In this document: one piece after another, positions 32,541-62,600 of the stretch | Layout: each line of letters starts with the position of its first letter | Position numbering within the stretch: position 1 is the stretch's first letter | Source: Marsupella aquatica | Taxonomy: Eukaryota; Plantae; Marchantiophyta | Assembly (NCBI GenBank): GCA_973895155.1 | Contig: OZ316892.1 | Coordinates: forward strand, 1,491,223 to 1,555,222 | Length of the DNA: 64,000 nucleotides | Direction of reading: 5' to 3' | Position numbers and translations under genes: made by a program | The notes under the pieces: model-generated | Database searches by the model: none | What the model saw: only the letters and a program-made list of their open reading frames with translations | What the model was told of the DNA's origin: nothing

Positions 32541-32651
32541 AGTTACTCTAACTTATACACAAAATGGGGCTCAACTTAGTTACTCTAGCTTATACACAAA
32601 AAGGGGCTCAACTTAGTTACTCTAGCTTATACACAAAAAGGGGCTCAACTT
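32541..32651. repeat. ~36-bp tandem repeat, 3 copies
   Basis: agttactctagcttatacacaaaaaggggctcaactt repeated three times. Confidence 0.85.
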
Positions 32652-33010
32652 ACGAATAAAAATAGCTAGGAAGAAAAATAGTTTTGGGGACACATGGACA
32701 AAAAGGGTCAGTTTGGGGGACAGGTTAGTAAAGAACGGTAGCAGGGATTCACAGGTTCCATCATATTAATTCTTTCAAAATGCCAAAGCTCCAGGGTTTT
32801 TCCTATTAGTTTTCACAGCTTCAATTTCTTCTTTTCCAGCGGCGAAATTCTTCTTTCGTTCCCAAGCAGACCTTAGCAGCACGAGGTCCAGCGTACACTA
32901 CAGTAGGCCGAGCGACGAGGCTTTGCATTCGGCCAAGAAGAGGGGAGCAGGGGCGAGAAGAGTGGAGCTGGCCTGTTATCATTCCATCGGAGGTGGTGTA
33001 GTTGTTGGAG

Positions 33011-36000
33011 ATGGCTGCGGTTTCAGCTACAAAAGTCCGTGCTGCTCTCGGATCCGTTGCTGCCCGGCACACGGCTGCAACCCTGGTGTGGATCTCGATT
33101 GGAGGCCGCAGCGAGTGCTCTTTGAGAGATTCGAGGACTCTCCGGTGCCGTTCCCCCATTTTTTCCAGTTCAGGTGATTTACCGGTGATTTTCGTATCTA
33201 TTCGAGTAGAAGTGGTGATTTTCTGTGGTCTGCGTGACAATAATGCTTGATCGAGAATGTATGCGTTGTCTTGTGTTGGAGTCTAGGTTTTTTTCCAGCG
33301 AAAAGATTTTTTTCTTGCTACCTGTCTGCAGTCTGTGTTGGGCCGTGCGTACTGTATCATAGAAATTGGTTTTCCGAGTGTTTTTTGTAATACTGTCAAT
33401 AGTGTTATTGATATAGAAACTATGACACGCCTTGGAAGCTTCAGAGGTAGAATCAGGTCCTATTTATCTCTCTGGAGATTGTGGTGGAGGTGTCGACGTG
33501 GAATGAGGACTCCTTCACTTGACGATCTAAAAGCCAATCGGTGCATAGCATGTTAGTTTGTTTCCGTGGTTTCAGTCCCAAGAATTGAGTGCAACGTTGT
33601 GGTGTGGGTTGATTTAGTCGCATTGTGGCATTTGGGTCGATAGATTTCCTGTTGGTCGGAGTTCCTGGGCTGTACTTCTGGAGTATGTCATTGCAACTAT
33701 GTAGGAGCTGAGGGGTCCTTTTTCTTCCTTCGTCATTTATTTCGTCAGCATTGATGTCCTATCTGAGAAGCTTGTCTACTTTGCTGTCTTGTGTTGTACA
33801 AGTGTCACATGTGCCATGTAGTCAGTCCTAAGCTTTTAGCCCCTTGTTATCACATTATGCCTTCTCACACATGCTGTATTAGTCCCGGCAGAATAAGCAT
33901 GGCACAGTCTGTTCCCTGGGTCACCCAGTTTTCATACCTGGACAGACGGGAGGAAGGAAAGAACTTTGTTGCTCTAGAGCCCTCCGTGGGTCGCTAATAC
34001 TTCAAAAGCATTTCCGGATATTTGAATCATTAGTTTTATTCGAGGGTCCGATAGATCTTTCAAGGTTGACAGTATTAGCAGTGTATAGGCATCAGTTTTG
34101 GAGGCTCCTGGCTGAATGCAATGTGACTCTTTCTTTTCTGCGTATACGCATGCGGATCATCTATATAATTTACCAGTAGCCGTGGTCTTTTTGCCAGGGC
34201 AGCAAAGAACTGTGGAAGAGAGATGGATTTCATTTTTCGCAGATCCTACTCATTGGTGGGATCACAGGTCAGAAAAGGTACATTCGTCATCCTCAGAGAC
34301 TTTTTAGTTCTTCTCTTTCCTTGTTTTTCAGTGCAAGAGTGGTAAAACCTTCTTATTGAACTGCTTTGAGGTAGCTGTGTAGCTCATCCTCCTGTACACC
34401 AGGCTGTGATAAATGCAGGGCTGATCAACTCGATTCGGATTTATGGTTGCTAGACAAATCCAAGGTATCCAGACTTTACACACAAAGATACACAGGAGCC
34501 ACTCTGGCTGAATGGCAGATCGAATCCGGTATGGGTGGAAGCAGAGCTAGCTGCTCTTATATCAGGGCCCTCTCAGAAAAATCTATTTTCTTGGAATGGG
34601 ATGCTTGCAAAACACATTAAGAAGGGGGAGAATAAGAAAACGCTGGAACTTTTGCGGCAAATGCAGCAAGAGGGCATGAAGCCAGACAGATACTCATACG
34701 TCCCCGCCCTGAAGGCATGTGCTAACTTGGGAGCACTTAAAGAGGGCAGCCAGTTGCATGCAGAAATTATTCAAAGTGGATGCGAGTCAGATCCATATAT
34801 TGGGAGTAGCCTCATTGACATGTATGCTAAATGTGGGAGCATAGAGAATGCTAGGGAAGTGTTCGACAACATGTCCGCAAGAGATGTTGTGGTTTGGACT
34901 GCCATGATCAAGGGGTATACAAAATGCCGGCAGGGGCACAAGGCATTAGAAGTATTTCGAGAAATGCAATTGAGCAGGGTGAGGCCGAATCCAATCACTT
35001 TTGCTGGGATCTTAAATTCATGTGCAAGTATAGGGGCGCTTGAGGAAGGTAGGCGTGTCCATGCACAAATCGCCCGGAGTGGCTTGGAGTCAGATCCTTT
35101 TGTTTGTAGTGGCCTCATTGATATGTATGCGAAATGCGGGAGCATAGAGGATGCTTCGAGAGTTTTCAACAAGTGGCCTGTTCAAGATGTGGTGTCCTGG
35201 AATGCTATGATCATGGGATTTGCGAAATGTGGACAAGGGCAGAAGGCATTGGAACTTTATCGACAAATGCATGCAAGAGCTCTAAAGCCGACCGTTAGTA
35301 CATTCAAGGGGGTCCTCATTGCCTGTGGCAGTGAAATGGACCTTCAAGAGGGCAAACAGGTTCACTTGCAGATCAGTCAGAGTGGGTGTGAGTCTGATAT
35401 GTTTGTGGCTAGTAGCCTGGTCGACATGTATGCTAAATGCGGGAGCATCGAGGATGCGTTGAGAGTGTTCGATCAGATGCCCATACGAGATTTGGTTTCT
35501 TGGAATGCCTTGATTTTGGGATTCGTGAAAAATGGTCAAGCAGAGAAGGCATTCGAACTATCTAGAAAGATGCAAGAAGGAGGACTACAGCCAGACTCTA
35601 GCACCTTTGTGGGGCTGCTCAATGGATGTGCTAGCACTGGAAATCTCGAAGAGGGCAAACGTCTTCATGCACACATCAAAGAATGTGGTTGTGAAAACGA
35701 TCTTTTCGTGGCCAGTAGCCTCGTTGACATGTATGCCAAGTGCGAGAGCCTGACAGAGGCCTGTCGAGTTTTTAACAAGATGCCTGTAAGGGACGTGGTT
35801 GTTTGGACTGCATTGATAAAGGGGTTTTTAAAGTTCGGGCAAGGTTTGATGGCACTGGAACTATTTCAACAGATGCAAATTGGAGGGGTGAAGCCAGACC
35901 GAATTTCCTTCGTTGGAGTACTCAATGCATGTGCAAATGTGACAGCACTCGAAGAGGGCAGGTGCATTCATGTGCAAGTTATTGAAAGCGGTTGCGAGTC

Positions 36001-37021
36001 TGATCGTTTTGTAGGTAATTCTCTTGTTAATATGTATGCCAAATGTGGTAGCATAGAAGAGTCATGGAAGGTATTTGAAAAGATGCCAACACGAGATGTA
36101 GTGTCATGGAATTCCATGCTAGGAGGATTTGCTATGCACGGAGATGCGAAGAAAGCTCTTCAACTTTTTGAACAGATGCACCAAGAAGGTGTGGAGATGA
36201 ATGGGGTCACTTTCGTTTGTTTGCTGTCGGCCTGTAGCCATGGAGGTCTTGTGGACGAAGGTCTTCACTACTTTAAAAGCATGGAAGCAGTTTATGGTAT
36301 TCCAGCCACAGCAGAGCATTATTCGTGCGTAGTGGATATGCTCTGTCGCGCTGGTCATATCCAGGAGGCAGAGGACATCCTCATAACAATGCCGTTTGAA
36401 CCTGATGGTTCTATGCTGAAGGCTTTACTTGCTGCTTGCCGTGTCCATGGGAATGTTCAGATTGGAGAACGTACTGCGAAAAGAGTGCTTCAGTTGGACC
36501 CACAAAGTTCCTCAGGCTATGTTCTGCTATCAAATATCTATGCTGCTGATGGTGACTGGGATCGAAGTGCTTCCTTTCAACAGTTGAGGAAGGAGAGGGG
36601 TGTGAAGAAGCAACCAGGGTGTGCATGGATCTCAGTAGATAATGCGGTGCATACGTTTTTGGTAGACGATCAAGCACATCCTCACATTGGCGAAATCCAC
36701 TCAGAACTTAACAGATTAGTGGCGGCGATAAAAGAGGCAGGATATGTGCCAGATACACGTTTTGCTTTGCATGACGTAGAGGAAGAGGAAAAGATAGGTC
36801 ATTTGGGTTTTCACAGTGAGAAGTTGGCCATTGCATACGGACTTCTCAGGACTGCTCCTGGAACCGCTATCCGCATCTTTAAAAATCTCCGGGTTTGCGG
36901 TGATTGTCATACTGCCACCAAGTTCATTTCAAAAGTAGTTGAAAGAGAAATCATTGTAAGGGATTCTAACCGATTTCATCATTTTAAGGACGGTCTCTGT
37001 TCTTGCAGAGATTATTGGTGA
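33011..37021 (+). CDS. PLS-class PPR protein with E1-E2-DYW deaminase (organellar C-to-U RNA editing factor) and an N-terminal OSB-type PDF motif
   Basis: Exon 34454-37021 encodes (P-L-S)x5-P2-L2-S2-E1-E2, PG box PGCAWI, HSEKLA...CGDCH zinc site and terminal DYW. Exon 34198-34277 joins in frame through a GT-AG intron (34278-34453). Upstream exons are tentative: 33011-33173 (Ala/Arg/Ser-rich transit-peptide-like), ~33332-33368 and 33883-33989. Confidence 0.93.
34198..34560 (+). other. PDF motif (OSB-family ssDNA-binding module) split by an intron
   Basis: Spliced translation EERWISFFADPTHWWDHRSEK|TNPRYPDFTHKDTQEPLWLNGRSNPVWVEAEL matches the OSB PDF consensus WxxFFxxPxxWWDNRxxKxNPxxPDFKHKxTxExLWL..xPxW. 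Confidence 0.88.
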
Positions 37022-51858: not shown

Positions 51859-52742
51859 GACAGGCACCCTCCAGTAGCTATTCAATCCCGCTCATCCTAC
51901 CATTAATCTAAGTCCAATTCTTCGCCAATGTTGCGAGTGTTTGTTGCGCCTTTCAACACATGCAAATCAAAGGCATTGTACATCGAATTGAGGGTTGGGT
52001 CAGTGTGCTATCAGTTCTGGTTGTAGAGATATTTTATTGACGGAGGACCGGAATATCATACAAGAACTAGGACACCTGCGTCCTTATGCAGATAAAAACC
52101 TTGGCCAGATAGATTTTGCCACTAACGAGATACACAGCTCTTAATAACGCAGCAGATCGCGTCAAACAAAGATAGAAAAACAACAACGACAACAATTCAA
52201 TGCCATCAATGAGGCTGAGCAAGGCAGGGCAATGCAGTCCTGCATGTCCTGCATTAAGGACTAAGGTGAGGAGGGAAATTCGTAACCAGATCTGGTCTGA
52301 CAGAACGAAAATGTTACACCTACTTTTTTATGTAAAAGGCATGTATCCCCCTTCAAGATTGAAAGAAAATATCAAGCCCAGCTTTCGCCGTCTTTGTAGG
52401 CCCAGCAAGCTGGCAGTGGGCCACAAGAACAGGGTATTAACTTGAGCCTAGCTATGGTTCAGGAAAACCGTGTCAGCAATGTAGCTCGTTTCCCGAAGAA
52501 CACCTGGAAGCCTCTAGTTTCTACGAGTTTCCAGTTCCGGCTACGCTAAGAAACACAACCGTCTTCGTTCAGACCTGTTTTGAGGATTTAATCCAAAGGA
52601 ATGTAGAGTGTGGTTGGCGAATCAAACTTCCGAGTGAGCTTCGGAAAGTACAAATTGATGTGTCCCTCTGCCAAATAATCGACAATTTGGCTCACGCATT
52701 ACGCCGCCCTGCCACGGCCTTCAATGAGGAGCGCCTCATTAA

Positions 52743-55700
52743 TTAAACAACAAGCGGTGCACCAGGATCTTGAATTCTGATCAGGCGGGAGTATGCACCA
52801 TCTTGACCTCGAAGGGCTGCGTGCGATCCTTGCTCAATGACAACGCCGTCTTGCACTACAGCGATTGTGTCTGCACCTCGAATAGTTGAGAGACGATGCG
52901 CTACCATGACAGTCGTTCTGCCATTCATCAACCGATCTATAGCCGCCTGCACAACCTTCTCGGATTCGGCATCCAAGGCGGACGTGGCTTCGTCTAGCAG
53001 GAAGATGGTGGGATCCTTGAGTACTGCGCGGGCGATGGCCACACGTTGCTTCTGCCCTCCAGAGAGCTGCACGCCCCGTTCTCCGACGAGTGTTCTGTAA
53101 CCTTCTGGCAGTGAACTAATAAAGTTGTGAGCGTTAGCAGCCTTAGCAGCCTGGATCACTTCTGCCTCAGTGACTCCGGGTTTGCCATACTCAATATTTT
53201 CGTAGATAGTAGTGGCAAAGAGAGCTGGCTCTTGCTGCACCAAAGCAATGTGCTTCCGGATAGACTGCAAGTTATATCTCTTGATGTCCTTCCCATCGAT
53301 CAGAACCTGACCGGATACTGGATCGTAAAACCTTTCCATTAAGGCTATGATGGAGCTTTTCCCGGACCCACTAGATCCCACGAGCGCAAGGCTGTGGCCA
53401 GCTTCAAGTTTCACATTCATATTTTTCAAGACGATGATGTCCCGTCTGGATGGATAGGCAAATGTGACTTGTTTCAGCTCAATGTCTCCGTGGACACTCT
53501 CGGCCTTCACACCTTCGGGATCATTCGGCTCGATCTTAGTCCTTCGATCGATGAGTTCGAATAGTGATCCGACAGCTTGGACTCCTTTGACAAGGTCAGG
53601 CGCCAGTGTAAGGGCCTCCACAGCTTTCTGTGCACCCATGACCAGGATCAAAAAAACTTTCATCACAGACGCCAAAGTGGCTTTTCTAGAAGCTACAAGT
53701 TTCTGTGAGTACCACATCGCAATTGCAAGTGAACAGAAAAAGAAGAACTGAGACAACCCATATCCGAATCCGACGATATGTCCTTTCCGAAAGCTCTGTT
53801 GTTGGGGTCCTTCTAGCTCATTTGTGAAACGGACTTGAACCTTATCCTCTGCGCTAAATGCTGCCACGGTTCGGAAATTTCCCACAGCCTCTCCTGCCAC
53901 TTGAGTTGCTCTCTCGTACGCCTTCGCCTGGCCTTTGGTAAACTTGGTGAGTACCCAGGTCTGCGCAAATTGTCACAGAAGTCAAAATCGGCCCACTTCT
54001 TGAAAAATAACATCTTCAGTTGTTAAACTCCACAGGAAATGGTCATTAATTGCAGGTTACCCAACTAGTGAAAGCGAATTTCAACAATGTGGACTTCATG
54101 AATGTAATTTACAGCGTTACTAAGCTGTACTTGTGTATCCTCGTTTTCAACTGCCGTGCCAAAACGCTTGCAACATGAAATGTCAGAGAGCGAGAGAGGA
54201 GGACTCGCCTCAAATACACTCGCGATATTAATGAGTGGAAATACGCCCAAAAAAAGAAGGGTTAGCCTCCACTGTATTGCAAAAGAGACAGCAAAAGAAG
54301 CAATCAAAATCGTGATACTCGTGAAGAGCACGGCAATTCTATCGCCAAGGGCAGATCTCACGCCCTCAGCATCGGAGCTCAAACGACCTGCCAGCCGATC
54401 GCTATTGTTATCGTCTTCGTCGAACCATCCAAGCTCGTTCTTCAAAATTCCTGTCAAGTTGTACAGAAACACATGATCATCAGCAATCATCTTTTGATCA
54501 TGCAAAGTTACCCTCCAACCAACTACAGTAGGACGGGAGTTTCGTTTGTCCGTAGTCTCAAGAGAAACTTATCACCCCTCACAGTTTAATTTACAGATTA
54601 AAATTGCCCTCGTTCTTTCAAATGATTCAATTAGCTCTTCACATGCACCTCCGAGACAGCAACTTGCCAATAACTAAAGAGTTCGTGATTCTTACTTACC
54701 GGCGAACATCATTTCTCGCACTCGGGCTACGAGCCTTTCTCCCAAGACTCCGAGAGAGTAATCTTGAATAATATAAATAAAGATTGCGGCGACACCGAGC
54801 GCAACAGAGAGTAAACTGAAGTTAGAAAGATTCTTCTTCATCTTTTGTTGGTTTGGATTATAATATTCTGAAAGCAAACTGGCCAAGATGATGGAGTTCG
54901 CAAGAGTTAGCAAGCCTGTTCCTGTCGACCCTATCATGGCCGCAATGGTATACATCCAATCCTTTTTAGTCATTGCAGCGAGCCGTATGACAGGTCCCTT
55001 CCACCCTTTCACAGCTTCTTTCTCCTGTTGCTCCGCCTGGAGCGTTGCTTCGCCTCCCTCTGCACCATTAGGTATGCTTGATATATGGCGGGAGTGAGCA
55101 GTGCTATTAGGAATATCTGGGTGAGAAGATCCTGTCAACAAAATACCCAACGATCCGCTCAATACATGAGATATTTGGAAAAGCTGGGTCTTATTGAAAA
55201 CCCATAGAACATGTAGACAACAGCCAAAGCACGAGCGAGCAGACCATATATGCGAATAATGATTAGATCTCCTGTCAAGCGGAGTATCCGGCAAGATCAA
55301 ATCAAATTGATTCTCCACCTATCTCGAACATCCTCTTGATACCATAAGCCGCCTGTTCCGTCCATTTTCTCAGGTAAATGATTGGAGTCTTGATTGGGTT
55401 CTGCTGTCGCGTGAGAACGTACAGAACGCCTTGAAAGCATGGACTAGATGCTTAGAGTATCGGGAAAAGAACGGGACAACAGAATTTGGAATACCTTGAA
55501 GAGGATGAAGATTTCTAGAGGTGACCACTTTATTGGCAGCCAGTTCCTGCAGAAGAATTGCCGCAGCATAAACCCCGCCTTCTCTCGAGATAAGTTCCTG
55601 GTGGGAACCCCTCTCCACAATACGACCTTGCTCTACCACGGCGATGATGTCCGCATTTCGTATGGTGGTCAGGCGATGTGCAATCATAACTGTAGTCCTT

Positions 55701-58700
55701 TCCACCATGATGCGATCCAGGGCTTCTTGCACAACATGCTCCGATTCTGTGTCCAACGCACTGGTGGCCTCATCAAGAAGCAGAATCCTGGGATTTCTTA
55801 CTATGGCGCGAGCAATGGCTATACGCTGCCTTTGACCCCCCGAGAGCTGGACACCTCTCTCTCCCACCTGTATTACAAGATGCCATCAACAAAGAGTTCT
55901 CAAAGATCATTTTCATTGAAAAGTCTTATCCCAATTCGGGATGTACGGTTCTCCCCAAACTTTCACGCCTAGAATGAGACTCATGCAAAGTCTATATATT
56001 AACAAAAACTTAACACCACAGACGAGATAGTGAAAGCTGTCCTCCGAATCTCGATCAGGGCCGGAGAAAGATAGCATTCTGTTCGCTATCTGGAACGTGG
56101 GACTTACTTCAGAGCAGTGCCACTATATACCGTGGTCAGCACTGAATAGCGCATGGTGCAGTGGTAAAGTTGAGGATTCAATCTGAGGTCAATTTCCTCA
56201 ATGCCTTTAATTCCACACTGGTGTCCACGGGCCCCTACTTTGCATTTATTTGGGAGCTAAGCTCGATAATGTTCTTTAGAAGAACTTACCAGTACATCAT
56301 CCAAATCTTCCCGCTAAAAAGAAATATAGCTCCCCAACCAGTAGGCAACCAGAAAAGTCTTGGGCATCCAAAGTACAGCAACTTTAGCGGATGAGATAGT
56401 CCGATTGACAAAGCAACACAATCATACCTGAGTTTCATATCCTTGAGGAAGCTGACTAATGAAAGAGTGGGCATTCGCCACCTTGGCAGCTGCTTCAATC
56501 TCCTGTTGATTTGCATTAGCGCTTCCATAAACAATGTTTCCAGCTATGGTTGCTGCAAATAGTGCTGGCTCTTGACTGACCAGGCCGATCTGTTGTCGCA
56601 ACCACTTCAAGTTTAAATTCTTCAGGTCGAGACCATCCAGTAGGACCTCCCCTAGAGTTTGTTGAAGGCAAGATCATTAGTCCATTGTCACACGACAAAT
56701 CGTGGAAAGCAATCATGCGACATCCAACCATGCTTACTCCAGTCAATCATCTTAACTGTGAAAGAGAAGAAAAGCACAGGAGAAGTTGTATTGTCAAGTA
56801 CCTGCAGTGGGATCGTAGAAGCGTTCGATGAGTGAAACGACTGTACTCTTCCCGGATCCACTGCTTCCAACAACGGCAACAGTCTGTCCAGGAGGAATAG
56901 TGAGGGAAAAGTCCCGGAGTATAGGAACATCGGGTCTTGAAGGATAATAAAAGTCCACCTTCCAGAGCTCTAGTCTACCTTCTACCGTTGCGGGCATTAA
57001 GGCACTTTCATCTGGCTTATTGATCGAAGGCTTGTTCCGGATTACTTGGAGTATCTTGAAGGCAGATGCCTGTCCTTTAGTAAATGTTGGAATGCTTGAC
57101 AGCGCTTGTCCTAGTGACCTGCATCCAACACGACGTAATTCCGTTTCAGTGCCAGTTCTGGACTACAATGATTCACCTCTGCCTACCGTACCCGCTCACA
57201 GACACCCGAACAATACCCTTTTGTCTTTTGACACAGTTCATATCTCTCACGAATCAGATCTTCCTAGTCTATGCGGTACATAATTATCATACTGTACCTT
57301 CATTAACATCGATCCAGCTACAGTGAAGCCATTTATGTTCTTCCTCAGGGTCAATAAAAAGTTAAAGTTCCATCACCAACTGACTTACATGCTGCCGACG
57401 ACGACAATGAAAATGGTAGAGAGTGCACCGCCGCCACTGACGTAACCGTGGCGTACGAGTATCCCCCCGTAAGTGAAGAGAAGGCCATAAGAACAGAAAA
57501 TAATACAGAGGGTAACGCCCTTCCCGACACCCGTCACAAGGCCAGTGAAAATCCGTAGCCTCAGTGCATTCTGTAATGATTCGGAATAAGATTTGAGAAA
57601 ATTCTCCTCAGCAACAAACGAATAGACCGTCCGAATTTGAGAAATCGTCTGCACGGACAGAGCACCAAATTGTGAGCTTTGACGAATTGAAAAAAACCAT
57701 TTATCATCGTAAACCGGTGTGTAATGTGCCTCCAGGCCCGTACGGGCCAAAACGAACACTTGTAATAAGTACTCTCAATTTGGTGCTCGACGTCCGGCTA
57801 GGAGCGTCGGCAAACCTCTTAGAGCCTCGAACATAACAGAGAAATGATAGGAAATGAAATGATAGGAATCATTGGTTTGGCACATTTGTCTTCAACAGAA
57901 TACATTCAACATAATTTCATTCTTATTATTGAACAGTCGTTTACCTGATGCGCGATGACTTCTGCTCCTGAGGAGGCCGATGAAGTTTCTACAGAGAACC
58001 GAGCGAGATAATAGGTGTAGAGTGCCCCTGATAATGCGATGCACGGTATAACAGCTATGGTCACAACGGCAAGGCGCCATTGCATGTTGAAAGATATGAT
58101 GAAACTACCAATAAACGTCGCGAGGTGGTGTAAGAAGTGACCAGTCTGCACGCACATAGAATGAAAAGTCACTCATAAGTTTATGTGTGTCCTAGACTGT
58201 ACTGTAGCGAATTAAACTTAACCGCTGCACAATAATAGAATGGCACCAAGGCCTCGAGAATATCATTACGTCGGCGATCCCTACCTTTTCACCAATGGCA
58301 TCCTGCACTGCGAGGGTGTCAGTGGCAATGCTGTTCACGATGTCTCCTGTGTTGGTGCCAGTATCAAAATATGAAACGTCTTGCCGAAGCAACGCTTCAA
58401 GGTACTTTGCCCGCAATTTTGCTGCCTGCCTGTGTCCGGTATGCATCCAAAATGCAATCTCTAATGGCACGCATTAACAACGATAAGAGAACATTAGAAG
58501 TGTAGGAAATGTGAGCTTCAAAGTTACAAAACAACTCTATGATTAATCATTACCAAACCAGATGACAGCGGAAACGCTAGCAACACAACAAGCGCAAGAA
58601 TTATCTTAATAAGCTAGGTAGCTCAGGCAAATGGAGAACGAGTAGCCTGTCAAAAGATTACTATACCGAGCCACGATGAGCCAAATGCTAAGATGCTCAT

Positions 58701-59635
58701 CCACACATATAATAGCGCGTACTGCACAGCAACGTGAACATAAAGTAGAATCGTTAGCACATGAGCTGTTGAGGATCACGGTAACGAAATATAAGGAGTA
58801 TTGTTATTTGGGCAATCGAGGGGGAGTGCCCAGCTAGCTGCCCAGAAGTATGCCGCCTGCAGCTCAAATCCTGCTTGGTATCGGGCTTGGTATCGAACGG
58901 ACACTCAGGCTCACTGAGATACTATACGTCAGCAAACTAGCCCCGAAACTAGCTAGGTTGTTCAGGGCCACATAGCTAGCAGTCTTTGAAATTTCTATCT
59001 CCAGGGTTTTTAACCGCAGCACAGCATGAGCTGATTATGGGACTTAAATTGACAGTTTTTGTTGGAATGCGAATAGGCAATTAATTAAGTACCACAAGTG
59101 ACCCTAGTTTCGTAGTTCGTCCATAGTTTACAGACTTTCTAATTAGATGGCATGGACGAGCAACGCCTAAAATTTTGAACAGCTGGCAACTCAACAGAAT
59201 TCCTATATGCACGGTACACAAAAGTGTCATCAGGTGCCGCAGCAACATTTGCACGGAAAAGACTTGGACCTTAGTTTGAGCCAGTCCGATTTTTCCCTCT
59301 AGATCGTCCGAAAGGGATTCAAAATCACGCTGCGCGCGAGAGTTTACCTTATTCACTGTTTGCTCAGATAGACTTCCAATTCCATTTATAAGTTCTCCAA
59401 AGAAGATGAGTGTCACAGGCATAGCTAGGCCGTGACCAGCAGCACCGATGGCTCCAATCAACATTAGTACATAATCGACTCCGTCGGCAAAGGAGTACAG
59501 CTGTAGGATGGAAACCGTGGTTTCCTTCGGCGTAGCTGCTTTCTTAGACTTGTCCGAGTCTTTACAGACAATTTCATCCTTTGGCTCCGGGTCATCAATC
59601 TTTGGCCCAGACGCTTTCTTGTCAATGACAGCCAT
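52743..59635 (-). CDS. ABCB: Full-size ABC transporter, subfamily B (MDR/P-glycoprotein)
   Basis: TMD1-NBD1-TMD2-NBD2 with Walker A GSSGSGKS twice, LSGGQ signature twice and [10 protein letters not shown] twice. Exons approximately 59635-59348, 58721-58667, 58460-58285, 58146-57945, 57648-57389, 57118-56802, 56652-56428, 55867-~55495, ~55131-54699, ~54451-54209, 53960-52743. Confidence 0.96.
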
Positions 59636-62600
59636 CGTGGACGACCCCGTCTCGTAGCCCAACAGCACTCGATCAATTGATCGCCAGAGAGCTCTCTGGA
59701 ATACTCAAGCAAAGACACAGGAAGAAGGGAGACACAAATTTGACGGATGAGAGGAAAGAGTGTAACGTAGTCCACTTCAATAACTTGCCACGATTCCGGA
59801 TTTTTCCATAATTGCTGTACGTGAATGATCAGTAGCTGGACACTTGCTCTGATTTAGACATGCCGCAAAAGCTGCTTCGTCGTGTGAACGACCCGAACGA
59901 TCAACTGTAAAGAAGACGCGACAAGGATTGACATTTGAAACCGCAGCTGCTGCAGTTGCAGTAGAAGTTTGCCTAAAGTCTATGCCTGACTGCATTCAGA
60001 GGAATGAAGCCTGTTCTCCATCCTCAATCGCCTTCAAAACAAGAGCTGAGATACCGATCAAGAACACCACGCAAAGACACGAGCTAACGTCCACCTGCTG
60101 GATCCCTTGCAATGCCCGTGAAAGCTGGATTCCTTGCAATTATCCCCATGACACTTGCTATAGGGAGCTCTAAATATCAATCTCATAAACACTCTAGTTA
60201 ATTCTGCATCTCTATCTCTCACATTGAACGCACATGAAATCTTGAATTGCAGTCGTTTGTGAAGTGACATGCTGAGAGTATGCATTATTTTAATTCATGA
60301 TTTTCATGCAACAGGTTGATACTTGAGGCATCCGACTGGTTGTACTGGGGGGCCTCTGGATAGTAACTACTATTATATTGCAGGACAGAAACCTTACAGC
60401 CATTTTCTTGCGAGAATTATGGTCGGTGGGACCTCCAGCAGAATCGATTCACTTTGTGGGAATCCCCTCTCTCTGGGCGGGACTTCCTCGAGTCACCGCC
60501 GTCGGACTGTTGGGAGAGGACAGAGTTTGTAACAATGTCTGTTGCGTTTAACTCAAGGCGACTCTGCCGCATCCCCGTTCCATCCTCGGCTTCCTCCTCC
60601 TTCCATGATCTTCCTTCCAATTTCGTCCTTCCAATTTCGTGCTGCTTCGATCTTCTCCTTCGTACTCTCTTGTCTTGCTTTGCTTGTCTTGATTTGAAAT
60701 TCTCCGAGGCAAAATAGAGTGTCTACTACTCCTTCGTGCTCTCTTGTCTTTTAAAAAAAAAAATTCTCCAAGCCAAAATCGAGTGTCTACAATTCTCTTT
60801 CGCTGCTTGTGAGAATTCCGTAAACTTAGCCCATCTTGGGCGACACTTTCGTCTCAAATCCATAATAGGCCCTGACGCTGATAATGCCGCCCGGTGGCGA
60901 TTCTATAGAGGAAATTCGCGGTGCTTTTGTGACAGCCGTCATTGCCTTCACGTTTTAATATAATTTCTTCTAATCACAGGCTACAATGCTCCAAATTAGT
61001 GTATCCCGAAGACGTCAGCAGCTATGCACAAAAAGACAAAGCAGAGGAGCCCAATAGTATATATTAGAACTGCCAAAGACAAGGCGCTCAGGGAGACACA
61101 ATCCCACAGGCAAACCACCCGATGAAAAGGAGGGAACAAAAGAGCCAAAGGCACACCAAAGAGTTATGGGGTTACTAGCCTCTAACCTGCCAGAAAGTGA
61201 GGAAATGTTGACCTGCTCCAGCAGGGAAACCTTTTTGAGCTTTGCTGGAAGATGGAACAGTTTTCATACTAGAACCCCAGTTCAAATAATCTTTATCTTT
61301 ATCATACATAGTACTTGTCCAAAAAAAATTACCAGACAAGATTTCTCGGACACAGAATTATAGAATTGATAGCACCTTAGTAAAACAATATTACAAATGC
61401 AACTTTTCTTCCTGACAGGCAGACACTGCCCAAGTGAACCCAAAGGTCACCAACTAGGAGCCTAGGACCGAGAATGGACAGGGTCAACTTCCTATAAAAA
61501 TAGACATGTTATGAGTCCTCTATGAGATCCTATAGATGCCTAGGGTGAATGGGCTGATCACCCCAGATCAAGGCATTTTACACTTAGGTGACCCATGATG
61601 ACAGGAATGATTGTTATCGCTGTCACTAACACAATAGTTGCCTGTGACCAAGAGGGTAGCCAAGGGGGTAGGTCACAATGGCTGAACAAACTTACACTGT
61701 TACTACATGGTTGTATTACTCTGCAATTGGAAACCATTCTTCAATTATTCTCAAAAAATTGAGAGTTGCCTGGAATTGAGTTAAATAGAATAATGCGGCA
61801 TGAACTAAGAATCCCGTTGTCTCCAAGGACTAACTATTTCCTTACTTCATATAGCATTATAGCATGTTCATCCTACTACATGCCTATTTTGACTTATCTG
61901 AAAGAATTGAAATGAGGAGACATTTTACTTTTAACCCTAGTTTATGAAAAATAAGTATTGAAAAAATGATTATAAAAAAGTTAATGAAAAAATTGCACAC
62001 CTTTTCAAAAGTGAGAAAAGTACAATATTACATGTGCATTAATTGAAAGATATTACAGTAGTGAGTAGTTAATGTACCTGTAAAAGTACAACACTTTATG
62101 ATTCAAAGAGAAGAGCGTGAACTACTTAACTTTGTTTTTTAAATTTTTTTGCTCTATGTGGGGCTCTTTATTTCGGTGACACCTGTTCATCAATAAACCA
62201 TGAACAATGTAAATTCTATGACCAATGATATATAAGATGCGCTCATCAGTGAATAGTGTACTAGTTGTTTGGTTGAAGGGCCTAACCTATGCCCCTCAAA
62301 ATGTTTAGGGAACCTAATAAAAACTATGCCCCTTAAAATGTTCAGAAAATTTGTAAGGGACCTAATAAAAACTAAGGAAATTAAAAAAGTTAAGGGGGTG
62401 GCCAAAAATGACTAAATTTTAAATAATACATGGGTAAAACATGGATTAGGCCAAATTAACATAAAAATACACTTCAATCAAAGTGAATGAGACAAGATAA
62501 CCAAAGAGTATTCCACCATATAGTATAGCAGCCTAGAAAAAATCTGTCATCAGACGTTCCAACAATTGAGGCTTTGGGGCCACATAGGTTGAGTGACCCT

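Follow-up and report, generated by a model that had tools for sequence, protein, structure and literature searches.

A gene on the forward strand of a Marsupella aquatica DNA stretch of 64,000 nucleotides (the window, i.e. the whole stretch that was analysed) encodes a PPR-DYW protein headed by a true OSB-type PDF motif that is spliced in frame. The first-pass annotation had suggested a lineage-specific family. The fusion is neither lineage-specific nor a one-off, as many paralogues were found in the moss Sphagnum, the liverwort Calypogeia, the lycophyte Diphasiastrum and the fern Adiantum. The fusion seems to be undescribed. With medium confidence we propose that the protein edits organellar RNA from C to U and that its PDF sits as a rigid cap at the N-terminus, gripping the single strand without reading its sequence.

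Gene structure and splicing

The PDF motif is interrupted by a 176-nt phase 0 intron (intron 2, GT...AG, 34278-34453). Its N-terminal half starts at about 34215 in the 80-nt exon 2 (34198-34277) and its C-terminal half forms the beginning of exon 3 (34454-34549). Exactly these 176 nt are missing from one contig of run X1 (93% identity, depth 11.5, short side 81 letters), a run which derives from a different organism and is RNA by the tool's guess only, no run being on record as RNA. For exon 2 this contig, which aligned at 34195-34275, differs at 1 of 81 nt, compared with about 7% in exon 3, and no depth of run X1 was found in bins 34280-34449 of intron 2 or at 33804-34177 within the putative intron 1. 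DNA run X2 read through this region with 0 differences and retained intron 2. The omission in one run and the retention in the other confirmed the GT-AG intron predicted from the letters. Counterparts of intron 2 occur at the same position in loci L001 and L002, a near-identical pair in which the intron measures 124 nt, and L003 uses the same donor. Run X2 also contains further contigs whose match to the PDF exons is at least 80%. The stop-to-stop frame of exon 3 (34454-37021) comprises 855 amino acids, and the GTG of an 828-codon open reading frame is preceded by 27 codons within it, in agreement with the first-pass claim that the motif is in frame with this reading frame.

The start of the feature, formerly placed at 34198, had to be revised, because this position is a phase-1 splice acceptor and the run X1 contig continues 197 nt further upstream. 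The gene probably starts at 33011. The candidate exon 1 (33011-33173; ATG, 54 codons and 1 nt) was taken as the best among the four best-scoring phase-1 candidates and is the sole one of these four ending in CAG; the alignment of the run X1 contig from 34195, which adds the letters CAG, fits an upstream exon with this end. The putative intron 1 (33174-34197, 1024 nt, GT...AG, phase 1) has a well-supported acceptor and a predicted donor. Joining the candidate exon to the downstream exons yields an open frame of 936 amino acids with the PDF at residues 61-113, and thus with only about 60 amino acids ahead of it. The composition of the 55 N-terminal residues (10 S, 9 A, 7 R and 2 acidic) is transit-peptide-like. 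The candidate exon 1 sits in a multi-copy repeat, in which the depth of the DNA runs is approximately 35-45 times that of single copy, and a weak inverted repeat (73%) was observed at 32649/33748.

Identity and predicted structure of the PDF motif

Against a profile built from 17 PDF motifs of 8 named OSBs, themselves retrieved with a PPR-PDF profile, the spliced motif scored 68.9 bits, while its halves alone reached 25.0 and 35.6 bits and the best of 2000 shuffles 8.6 bits. All 13 positions conserved in at least 95% of 113 PPR-linked PDFs are retained in the window copy, including the invariant residues of its C-terminal half. At the core W, D, R, K, P, F and H positions, PPR-linked PDFs are conserved at least as well as OSB-like ones, and R19, K22, H32 and K33 (profile numbering) show 92-99% conservation among PPR-linked PDFs. 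Compared with a relative, none of the 3 listed differences in the PDF half changes a residue, against 9 of 19 changed codons downstream, although these numbers are small. Two features of the window copy were counted against our best explanation: its net charge is -4, where PPR-linked PDFs average +1.5, and the PDF triplet is followed by T, where 81% of them carry K.

The PDF is predicted to adopt a compact fold with high confidence (pLDDT 92), and the predicted fold of a Riccia OSB PDF matched those of three PPR/DYW clusters with TM values of 0.86-0.92. The profile score, the residue conservation and this fold match together uphold the first-pass assignment as an OSB PDF. A match of the PDF to solved structures was found neither by sequence nor by Foldseek or VIA-align (best Z 2.9, rmsd 2.6, 43 aligned), which is no proof of a new fold, and no viral fold matched at E <= 0.001. 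A phage origin suggested by Atlas rows (TM 0.63-0.68) was confirmed neither by PHROGs nor by tblastn on phages. The Pfam copy searched contains no family for the PDF motif, which newer Pfam releases list as PF30937, and PF00436, the SSB-like OB fold, was absent from exon 2, exon 3 and the frame with the candidate exon 1.

PPR array and deaminase domain

The PDF is connected by a junction (34550-34582) to 18 PLS repeats (34583-36406), arranged as five P1-L1-S1 triplets followed by P2-L2-S2. These are followed by the E1 and E2 motifs (36407-36610; Pfam E_motif) and by the deaminase domain (36611-37021; Pfam DYW_deaminase, PF14432, E 1.7e-44, 93 of 93 positions) with PG box (36614), HSEKL (36812), CGDC (36896), the terminal DYW and the stop. 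Repeat assignment and Pfam matches thus agree with the 18 repeats and the intact E1-E2-DYW region noted before. Each PLS repeat contacts one RNA base, and DYW:PG enzymes deaminate a C four bases past the last repeat. Canonical code pairs occupy 11 of the 12 P/S repeats, and with the PPR code as in PMC9508816 the predicted target is UNGANGNNGUNGGNUYNG-NNN-C.

According to the available text of PMC9478123, HSE and a PG box are marks of the C-to-U DYW:PG class, while DYW:KP U-to-C factors carry an HAE active site and an altered PG box and C-terminal triplet. The window protein carries HSE, the PG box and DYW, unlike DYW:KP factors, and displays the repeat and domain hallmarks of DYW:PG factors: triplets ending with P2-L2-S2, E1-E2, PG box, HSE..CxxC and terminal DYW.

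Distribution and origin of the fusion

Homologues were retrieved with residues 1-120 as query, but not with the 45-residue half motif. A PDF joined to PLS repeats was present in 93 of 270 fetched proteins, from Sphagnum, Calypogeia, Diphasiastrum and Adiantum, whereas none of 37 named proteins from seed plants had this combination. In each of the 93 proteins the first repeat is preceded by one PDF or more, and the DYW domain is intact in 20 of the 27 that bear one. Homologues carry 42-152 amino acids ahead of the PDF, and throughout the moss genus, liverwort, lycophyte and fern these N-terminal peptides vary freely while the PDF residues are near-invariant. As the N-termini of the Calypogeia set resemble those of Sphagnum, contamination was considered; towards the C-terminus, identity to Sphagnum (55-74%) does not exceed roughly that to Diphasiastrum (56-72%), and the assignment to the liverwort was therefore retained.

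The fusion is already present in public gene models and automatic annotations. No paper describing a PDF-PPR-DYW fusion was found in the literature searched, consistent with the first-pass view that this is not a characterised class, and the term PDF does not occur in the main text of a Physcomitrium PPR review.

In 48 of 94 proteins, a subclass which includes the window protein, precisely 20 residues (Trp to Trp) separate the PDF from the first repeat. By a second pattern this spacing was found in 24 of 26 Sphagnum, 5 of 5 Calypogeia and 7 of 42 Diphasiastrum proteins; it is missing in the other 35 Diphasiastrum and both Adiantum proteins. Many of these carry 2-3 PDFs and a longer Gly/Ser-rich linker.

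In a quick PDF tree, 98 PPR rows and one OSB-like row formed a single-origin group (SH-aLRT 99). After addition of a Riccia OSB to a tree of 53 columns with 29 of 114 PPR-linked PDFs (window included), two OSB PDFs fell within the PPR-linked group (97/94), and we consequently downgraded a single origin to not rejected; monophyly of the PPR-linked PDFs gave an AU p of 0.33 and is not rejected.

Comparison with known systems

OSB1-OSB4, a group among whose names is PTAC9, were reportedly described as organellar ssDNA-binding proteins by Zaegel et al. in 2006. The window protein shares with OSB1-OSB4/PTAC9 the PDF motif of about 50 amino acids, its predicted fold and, putatively, an N-terminal targeting peptide. 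It lacks the SSB-like OB fold, which those OSBs with PF00436 carry at about residues 75-245, and its single PDF is N-terminal and joined to a deaminase, whereas OSBs have 1-5 C-terminal copies. The available passages of PMC6963530 and PMC13393729 describe OSBs as organellar ssDNA-binding proteins. With PLS-class PPR-DYW factors of the DYW:PG type (Physcomitrium PPR56 and PPR65, Arabidopsis OTP86) it has P2-L2-S2, E1, E2, PG box, HSE..CxxC, DYW and canonical 5/L code pairs in common, and differs in the folded PDF domain added between putative transit peptide and first repeat.

The seed-plant helpers MORF/RIP and ORRM, which according to the available text of PMC12733224 heighten the affinity of a PLS protein for RNA or its rate of editing, resemble the PDF in proposed role only; they are separate proteins acting in trans, while the PDF is fused in cis, and no sequence relation is claimed. 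RRM-PPR4 likewise places a second nucleic-acid-binding domain before its PPR array, but PPR4, which carries an RRM and lacks a deaminase, is a splicing factor of the P class, as far as the available part of PMC9459714 describes it.

Proposed function and alternative explanations

The editor proposed here would be imported by means of its 55 N-terminal residues, and its PPR array would recognise a site like the predicted target. As the N-terminal PPR repeat binds the 5′ end of a site, the PDF would contact the RNA immediately 5′ of the PPR footprint, upstream of position -21, where it could add affinity or hold the target unfolded. Extra non-specific nucleic-acid affinity, one of the alternatives put forward in the first-pass annotation, is in our judgement the best reading of the PDF. 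The constant 20-residue spacing is more readily reconciled with a rigid cap than with a loose tether, whereas the 2-3 PDFs and longer linkers of other members suit a tether. For a Sphagnum homologue, the AlphaFold model shows disorder in residues 1-55 and an ordered PDF and junction (block pLDDT 77-92), a measure which says nothing on packing. The fusion would probably have arisen from an early land-plant OSB gene and then spread through duplication. As most seed-plant editing helpers are missing from Physcomitrium according to the available part of PMC9459714, the PDF may represent a built-in helper in plants devoid of most of these separate proteins. Such a cap is not needed in general, since PPR56 edits in E. 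coli with just 14 native residues before the first repeat (PMC10482289).

The available passages of PMC6963530 state that the PDF of AtOSB1 on its own binds ssDNA, which is the sole ligand reported for the motif in the literature passages searched; RNA binding is not reported in them. The PDF of an RNA editor might thus bind ssDNA as in OSBs and hold the protein at nucleoids, transcription bubbles or R-loops for editing of nascent transcripts. This would agree with the identity of the conserved PDF residues to those of OSBs and with a Diphasiastrum subclass whose 1-3 tandem PDFs and longer linker recall multi-PDF OSBs. We nevertheless regard it as rather unlikely, because the window's subclass has a single PDF at constant distance from the first repeat, which by geometry would lie on the 5′ side of the RNA and away from the polymerase, and because high-affinity binding was, in the source passages available, measured with tetrameric full-length OSB2 carrying two PDFs and not with a single motif. 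One can further speculate that the fusions represent an old, large class of seedless-plant deaminases that have an ssDNA-binding domain of their own and act at the organelle genome: they would dock on displaced ssDNA in transcription bubbles or R-loops, edit the nascent RNA and perhaps also deaminate ssDNA at PPR-code sites; this we consider unlikely.

Constant spacing, conserved junction, the compact and confident fold and the acidic window copy would also fit a PDF retained as a structural N-cap, which would stabilise the first repeats or keep them soluble while hardly touching nucleic acid, if at all. A pure cap does not obviously need the strongly conserved R19, K22, H32 and K33, and where PDFs stand in tandem, not every one of them can sit on the first repeat, so that we hold this explanation to be doubtful.

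Action on ssDNA is less likely than RNA editing, and DNA deamination finds no support in this analysis. That the PDF and PPR array would bind exposed organelle ssDNA for sequence-specific deamination of dC is conceivable, given that in the available texts designer P-type PPR arrays bind ssDNA by the same code (PMC12733224) and bacterial SsdA is a DYW-like ssDNA deaminase, but very improbable: the DYW domain is an ordinary DYW:PG domain behind an array with ordinary PPR code, dozens of paralogues with differing array lengths fit many RNA sites, dozens of C-to-T mutators of organelle DNA would presumably be costly, and the titles and abstract openings searched showed no plant PPR-DYW acting on DNA. 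It is equally improbable that the PDF exons have no function and ride along, having been taken over a single time from an OSB gene together with a targeting sequence and multiplied during PPR expansion, as their exon-like origin, seen in the phase-1 acceptor just before the motif, and the organellar transit peptides which OSB genes supply (in the source passages available) are outweighed by near-invariant PDF residues across four plant groups with diverging N-terminal peptides, by the low divergence of exon 2 relative to exon 3 and, again in those passages, by the C-terminal position of OSB PDFs far from the transit peptide.

Implications

With no more than 14 residues left before the first repeat, E. 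coli constructs (PMC10482289) would lose such a domain. A possible link between editing and nucleoids becomes testable through a single deletion in existing E. coli or in vitro assays, and if the PDF raises editing efficiency, it would provide a part of about 55 amino acids for designer PPR editors. A class of genome-docked deaminases, if true, would directly join RNA editing to the maintenance and mutation of organelle DNA. In the usual picture a PPR-DYW editor consists of transit peptide, repeats and deaminase; dozens of editors from one moss genus, one liverwort, one lycophyte and one fern additionally carry at their head a conserved domain taken from the ssDNA-binding proteins of organelles, which bears on the question of how seedless plants achieve efficient editing although they lack most seed-plant helper proteins.

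Identity and splicing of the PDF motif

A profile of 17 PDF motifs, cut from eight proteins named OSB1, OSB2 or OSB3 by their source, matched the spliced motif of the window gene with 68.9 bits over positions 2–53; this choice of reference is biased towards similarity, because the eight OSBs had themselves been retrieved with a profile of PPR-linked motifs. The two halves reached 25.0 and 35.6 bits separately, and the best of 2000 shuffles 8.6 bits. As an independent check, the PDF of a PF00436-positive OSB from Riccia fluitans was compared with the ESM Atlas, which revealed structure matches to three PPR/DYW clusters (127, 57 and 63 members; TM 0.86–0.92). The OSB-type PDF proposed in the first-pass annotation is thus borne out by a significant match in the profile search suggested there, and by structure. 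In the Atlas the aligned part is labelled PF30937, a family absent from the Pfam release used for our window scan, and the PDF-PPR architecture is already visible to automatic annotation. The AlphaFold model of a homologue's motif (pLDDT 92) comprises helix, strands and helix; a search of solved structures returned no match to the PDF.

The motif is divided by intron 2 (34278–34453, forward strand, 176 nt, phase 0), with GT at 34278 and AG at 34453, followed by an open frame of 855 codons on the same strand (34454–37021). A contig of 727 nt (depth 11.5) from X1, a run of another organism typed as RNA by the tool's guess while none of the five runs is recorded as RNA, joins 34195–34275 (one difference) to 34452–34780 (24 differences), leaving out 176 nt bounded by GT..AG. 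Within the intron X1 shows no depth, and the DNA run X2 carries the whole stretch in one piece with no differences and without the joint. The predicted intron is therefore removed exactly in one run and retained in the other. The junction check by RNA proposed earlier was answered in part: the joint was found, but in a relative about 93% identical and in a run that is RNA by guess. The splice was seen once, in the relative's orthologue or close paralogue. Two near-identical loci with related copies, L001 and L002, have an intron of 124 nt at the same position. A third, L003 (3800–4300), is a decayed copy which keeps the donor, has no AG at the acceptor and is broken in frame after the PDF half.

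Gene start

An AG directly precedes position 34198, where the reading frame is entered in phase 1; a further exon therefore lies upstream. The X1 contig extends 197 nt further upstream, without alignment between 33770 and 34194. Of the candidate exons running from an ATG to a phase-1 donor, considered from 31000 onwards, four shared the best donor score; 33011–33173 is the only one ending in CAG, which matches the three extra bases aligned at 34195–34197. We infer this stretch as exon 1, giving an open protein of 936 aa with a Ser/Ala/Arg-rich stretch of 55 residues at its start. Against this assignment, it lies within a dispersed repeat (32900–33760) whose depth in three DNA runs is about 35–45 times that of single-copy sequence and which is present in many X1 contigs. 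Because of this overlap, the repeat may be the source of the targeting peptide, or the 5′ part may be common to many genes. A 37-nt unit in three tandem copies (32541–32652) lies upstream of the inferred start.

PPR array and deaminase

The frame 34454–37021 encodes five P1-L1-S1 triplets followed by P2-L2-S2, E1, E2 and the DYW domain. Pfam matches comprise PPR, E_motif and DYW_deaminase (all 93 positions), and the PG box, HSEKL, CGDC and terminal DYW are present; the intact E1-E2-DYW part noticed earlier is confirmed. With the code as set out in PMC9508816, 11 of the 12 P and S repeats carry canonical pairs, and the predicted target is UNGANGNNGUNGGNUYNG-NNN-C. HSE and PG box are described as marks of the C-to-U DYW:PG domain (PMC9478123), a gated deaminase (PMC7611903). 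Because of these marks and the canonical pairs, the protein is very probably an RNA editor, as judged from its sequence.

Elsewhere in the window, a multi-exon gene on the reverse strand (about 52700–59700) with ABC_membrane and ABC_tran matches encodes an ABC transporter, presumably of subfamily B, and has no connection with the PDF-PPR gene. Several frames of 130–480 codons at about 160–30000 resemble transposon remains by eye; four of them, scanned against Pfam, gave no match.

Family, junction and origin

The PDF profile retrieved 323 proteins (best 120 taken) and 1163 representatives at 50% identity (best 150 taken). Among the 270 proteins from the matches listed, at least 93 combined PDF and PLS repeats, 164 had the PDF only and 13 PLS only; these are top-ranked matches with many near-copies across Sphagnum species, so that the counts indicate presence rather than absence and are not independent. 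The PDF preceded the first repeat in 93 of 93 proteins: Diphasiastrum complanatum 42, Sphagnum 26, Calypogeia fissa 5, Adiantum 2 and 18 without source name. The suspicion of a lineage-specific family is thereby contradicted. Among the same matches, none of 37 named seed-plant proteins combined both parts; the other 129 PDF-only proteins belong to other groups or have no source name. The proposed count of PDF+PLS-DYW proteins was made among the matches listed, where 27 of the at least 93 contain a DYW part, 20 of these with intact signature. Many others end after E2 or resemble truncated gene models. Diphasiastrum proteins such as P0025, P0029 and P0035 form a second subclass, which combines as many as three PDFs in tandem with a longer linker rich in Gly and Ser and with long PLS arrays; many of its members stop after E2 and lack a DYW.

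Counted from the last invariant Trp of the PDF, the Trp of the first P repeat follows at a distance of exactly 20 residues in 48 of the 94 proteins compared, including that of the window. By a second pattern, this spacing occurs in Sphagnum (24/26), Calypogeia (5/5), Diphasiastrum (7/42), Adiantum (0/2) and proteins without name (15/18); the remaining Diphasiastrum proteins mostly have the longer Gly/Ser-rich linker, often with two or three PDFs. A tree of 82 motifs (53 columns) placed its 29 PPR-linked PDFs together with two OSB PDFs, that of Riccia and one without source name (support 97/94), and separated them from the OSBs of seed plants and Prasinoderma; the window PDF grouped with Sphagnum and Calypogeia motifs (99/94), pointing to a bryophyte as its source. 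The best tree mixes in the two OSB PDFs, and a single clade of PPR-linked PDFs was not rejected (AU p 0.33). The fixed junction argues more directly for shared ancestry than the tree. On the simplest reading, the fusion arose no later than the split between bryophytes and tracheophytes.

Among the entries of the ESM Atlas, hypothetical proteins from phages (Uroviricota; 187–199 aa) match the PDF fold at TM 0.63–0.68, one labelled PF30937; a phage origin of the motif is possible on these models, and sequence searches gave no confirmation of it. Six proteins (P0136, P0143, P0024, P0137, P0138, P0063) carry 6–11 tandem PDFs each; the four scanned for SSB or PPR (P0136, P0143, P0024, P0063) gave no match. 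Two tandem-PDF proteins come from the dinoflagellates Effrenium voratum and Cladocopium sp., a PDF-repeat class outside green plants.

Proposed role of the PDF

The window protein has no OB fold and is therefore not an OSB protein. In the model of the Sphagnum homologue P0087, residues 1–55 are disordered, while PDF and junction are ordered. Together with the fixed spacing, this fits a rigid unit in which the PDF would lie just outside the PPR footprint, on its 5′ side. We therefore favour, with about even confidence, a PDF that would grip the RNA strand without sequence specificity over the rival readings. Against binding, the net charge of the window PDF is −4 versus a PPR-linked mean of +1.5. 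A motive for a built-in aid may be seen in Physcomitrium, reported to lack most seed-plant editing helpers (PMC9459714); PPR56, reported to edit in E. coli when its first repeat is preceded by 14 native residues (PMC10482289), indicates that the domain is not generally required.

The PDF of OSBs is described as sufficient for ssDNA binding (PMC6963530, PMC6451138, PMC13393729), and a tether to nucleoids is conceivable though doubtful; a pure cap appears slightly less plausible still. Deamination of ssDNA by the protein is highly improbable, and the reported ssDNA binding by designer PPRs (PMC12733224) keeps the DNA readings alive. We give equally little credit to the PDF as a passenger: core positions are 97–100% conserved in 113 distinct PPR-linked motifs, at or above their level in 220 OSB-like motifs, the window motif retains all of them, and among the 24 of 30 differences listed for the X1 relative, the three in the PDF half are all synonymous while 9 of 19 changed codons downstream alter the residue.

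A literature search whose coverage extended to few subscription papers returned no paper naming a PDF-PPR fusion, in line with the earlier remark that this architecture was not familiar as a characterised class; the PDF passages of the review PMC6963530 concern OSBs only, and 'PPR' does not occur in the main text of a 2026 survey of 182 OSB genes (PMC13393729). The PDF-PPR-DYW architecture of the window gene is real, spliced and conserved, and its product belongs to a subclass of PLS-DYW editing factors that is widespread in seedless land plants and apparently undescribed.
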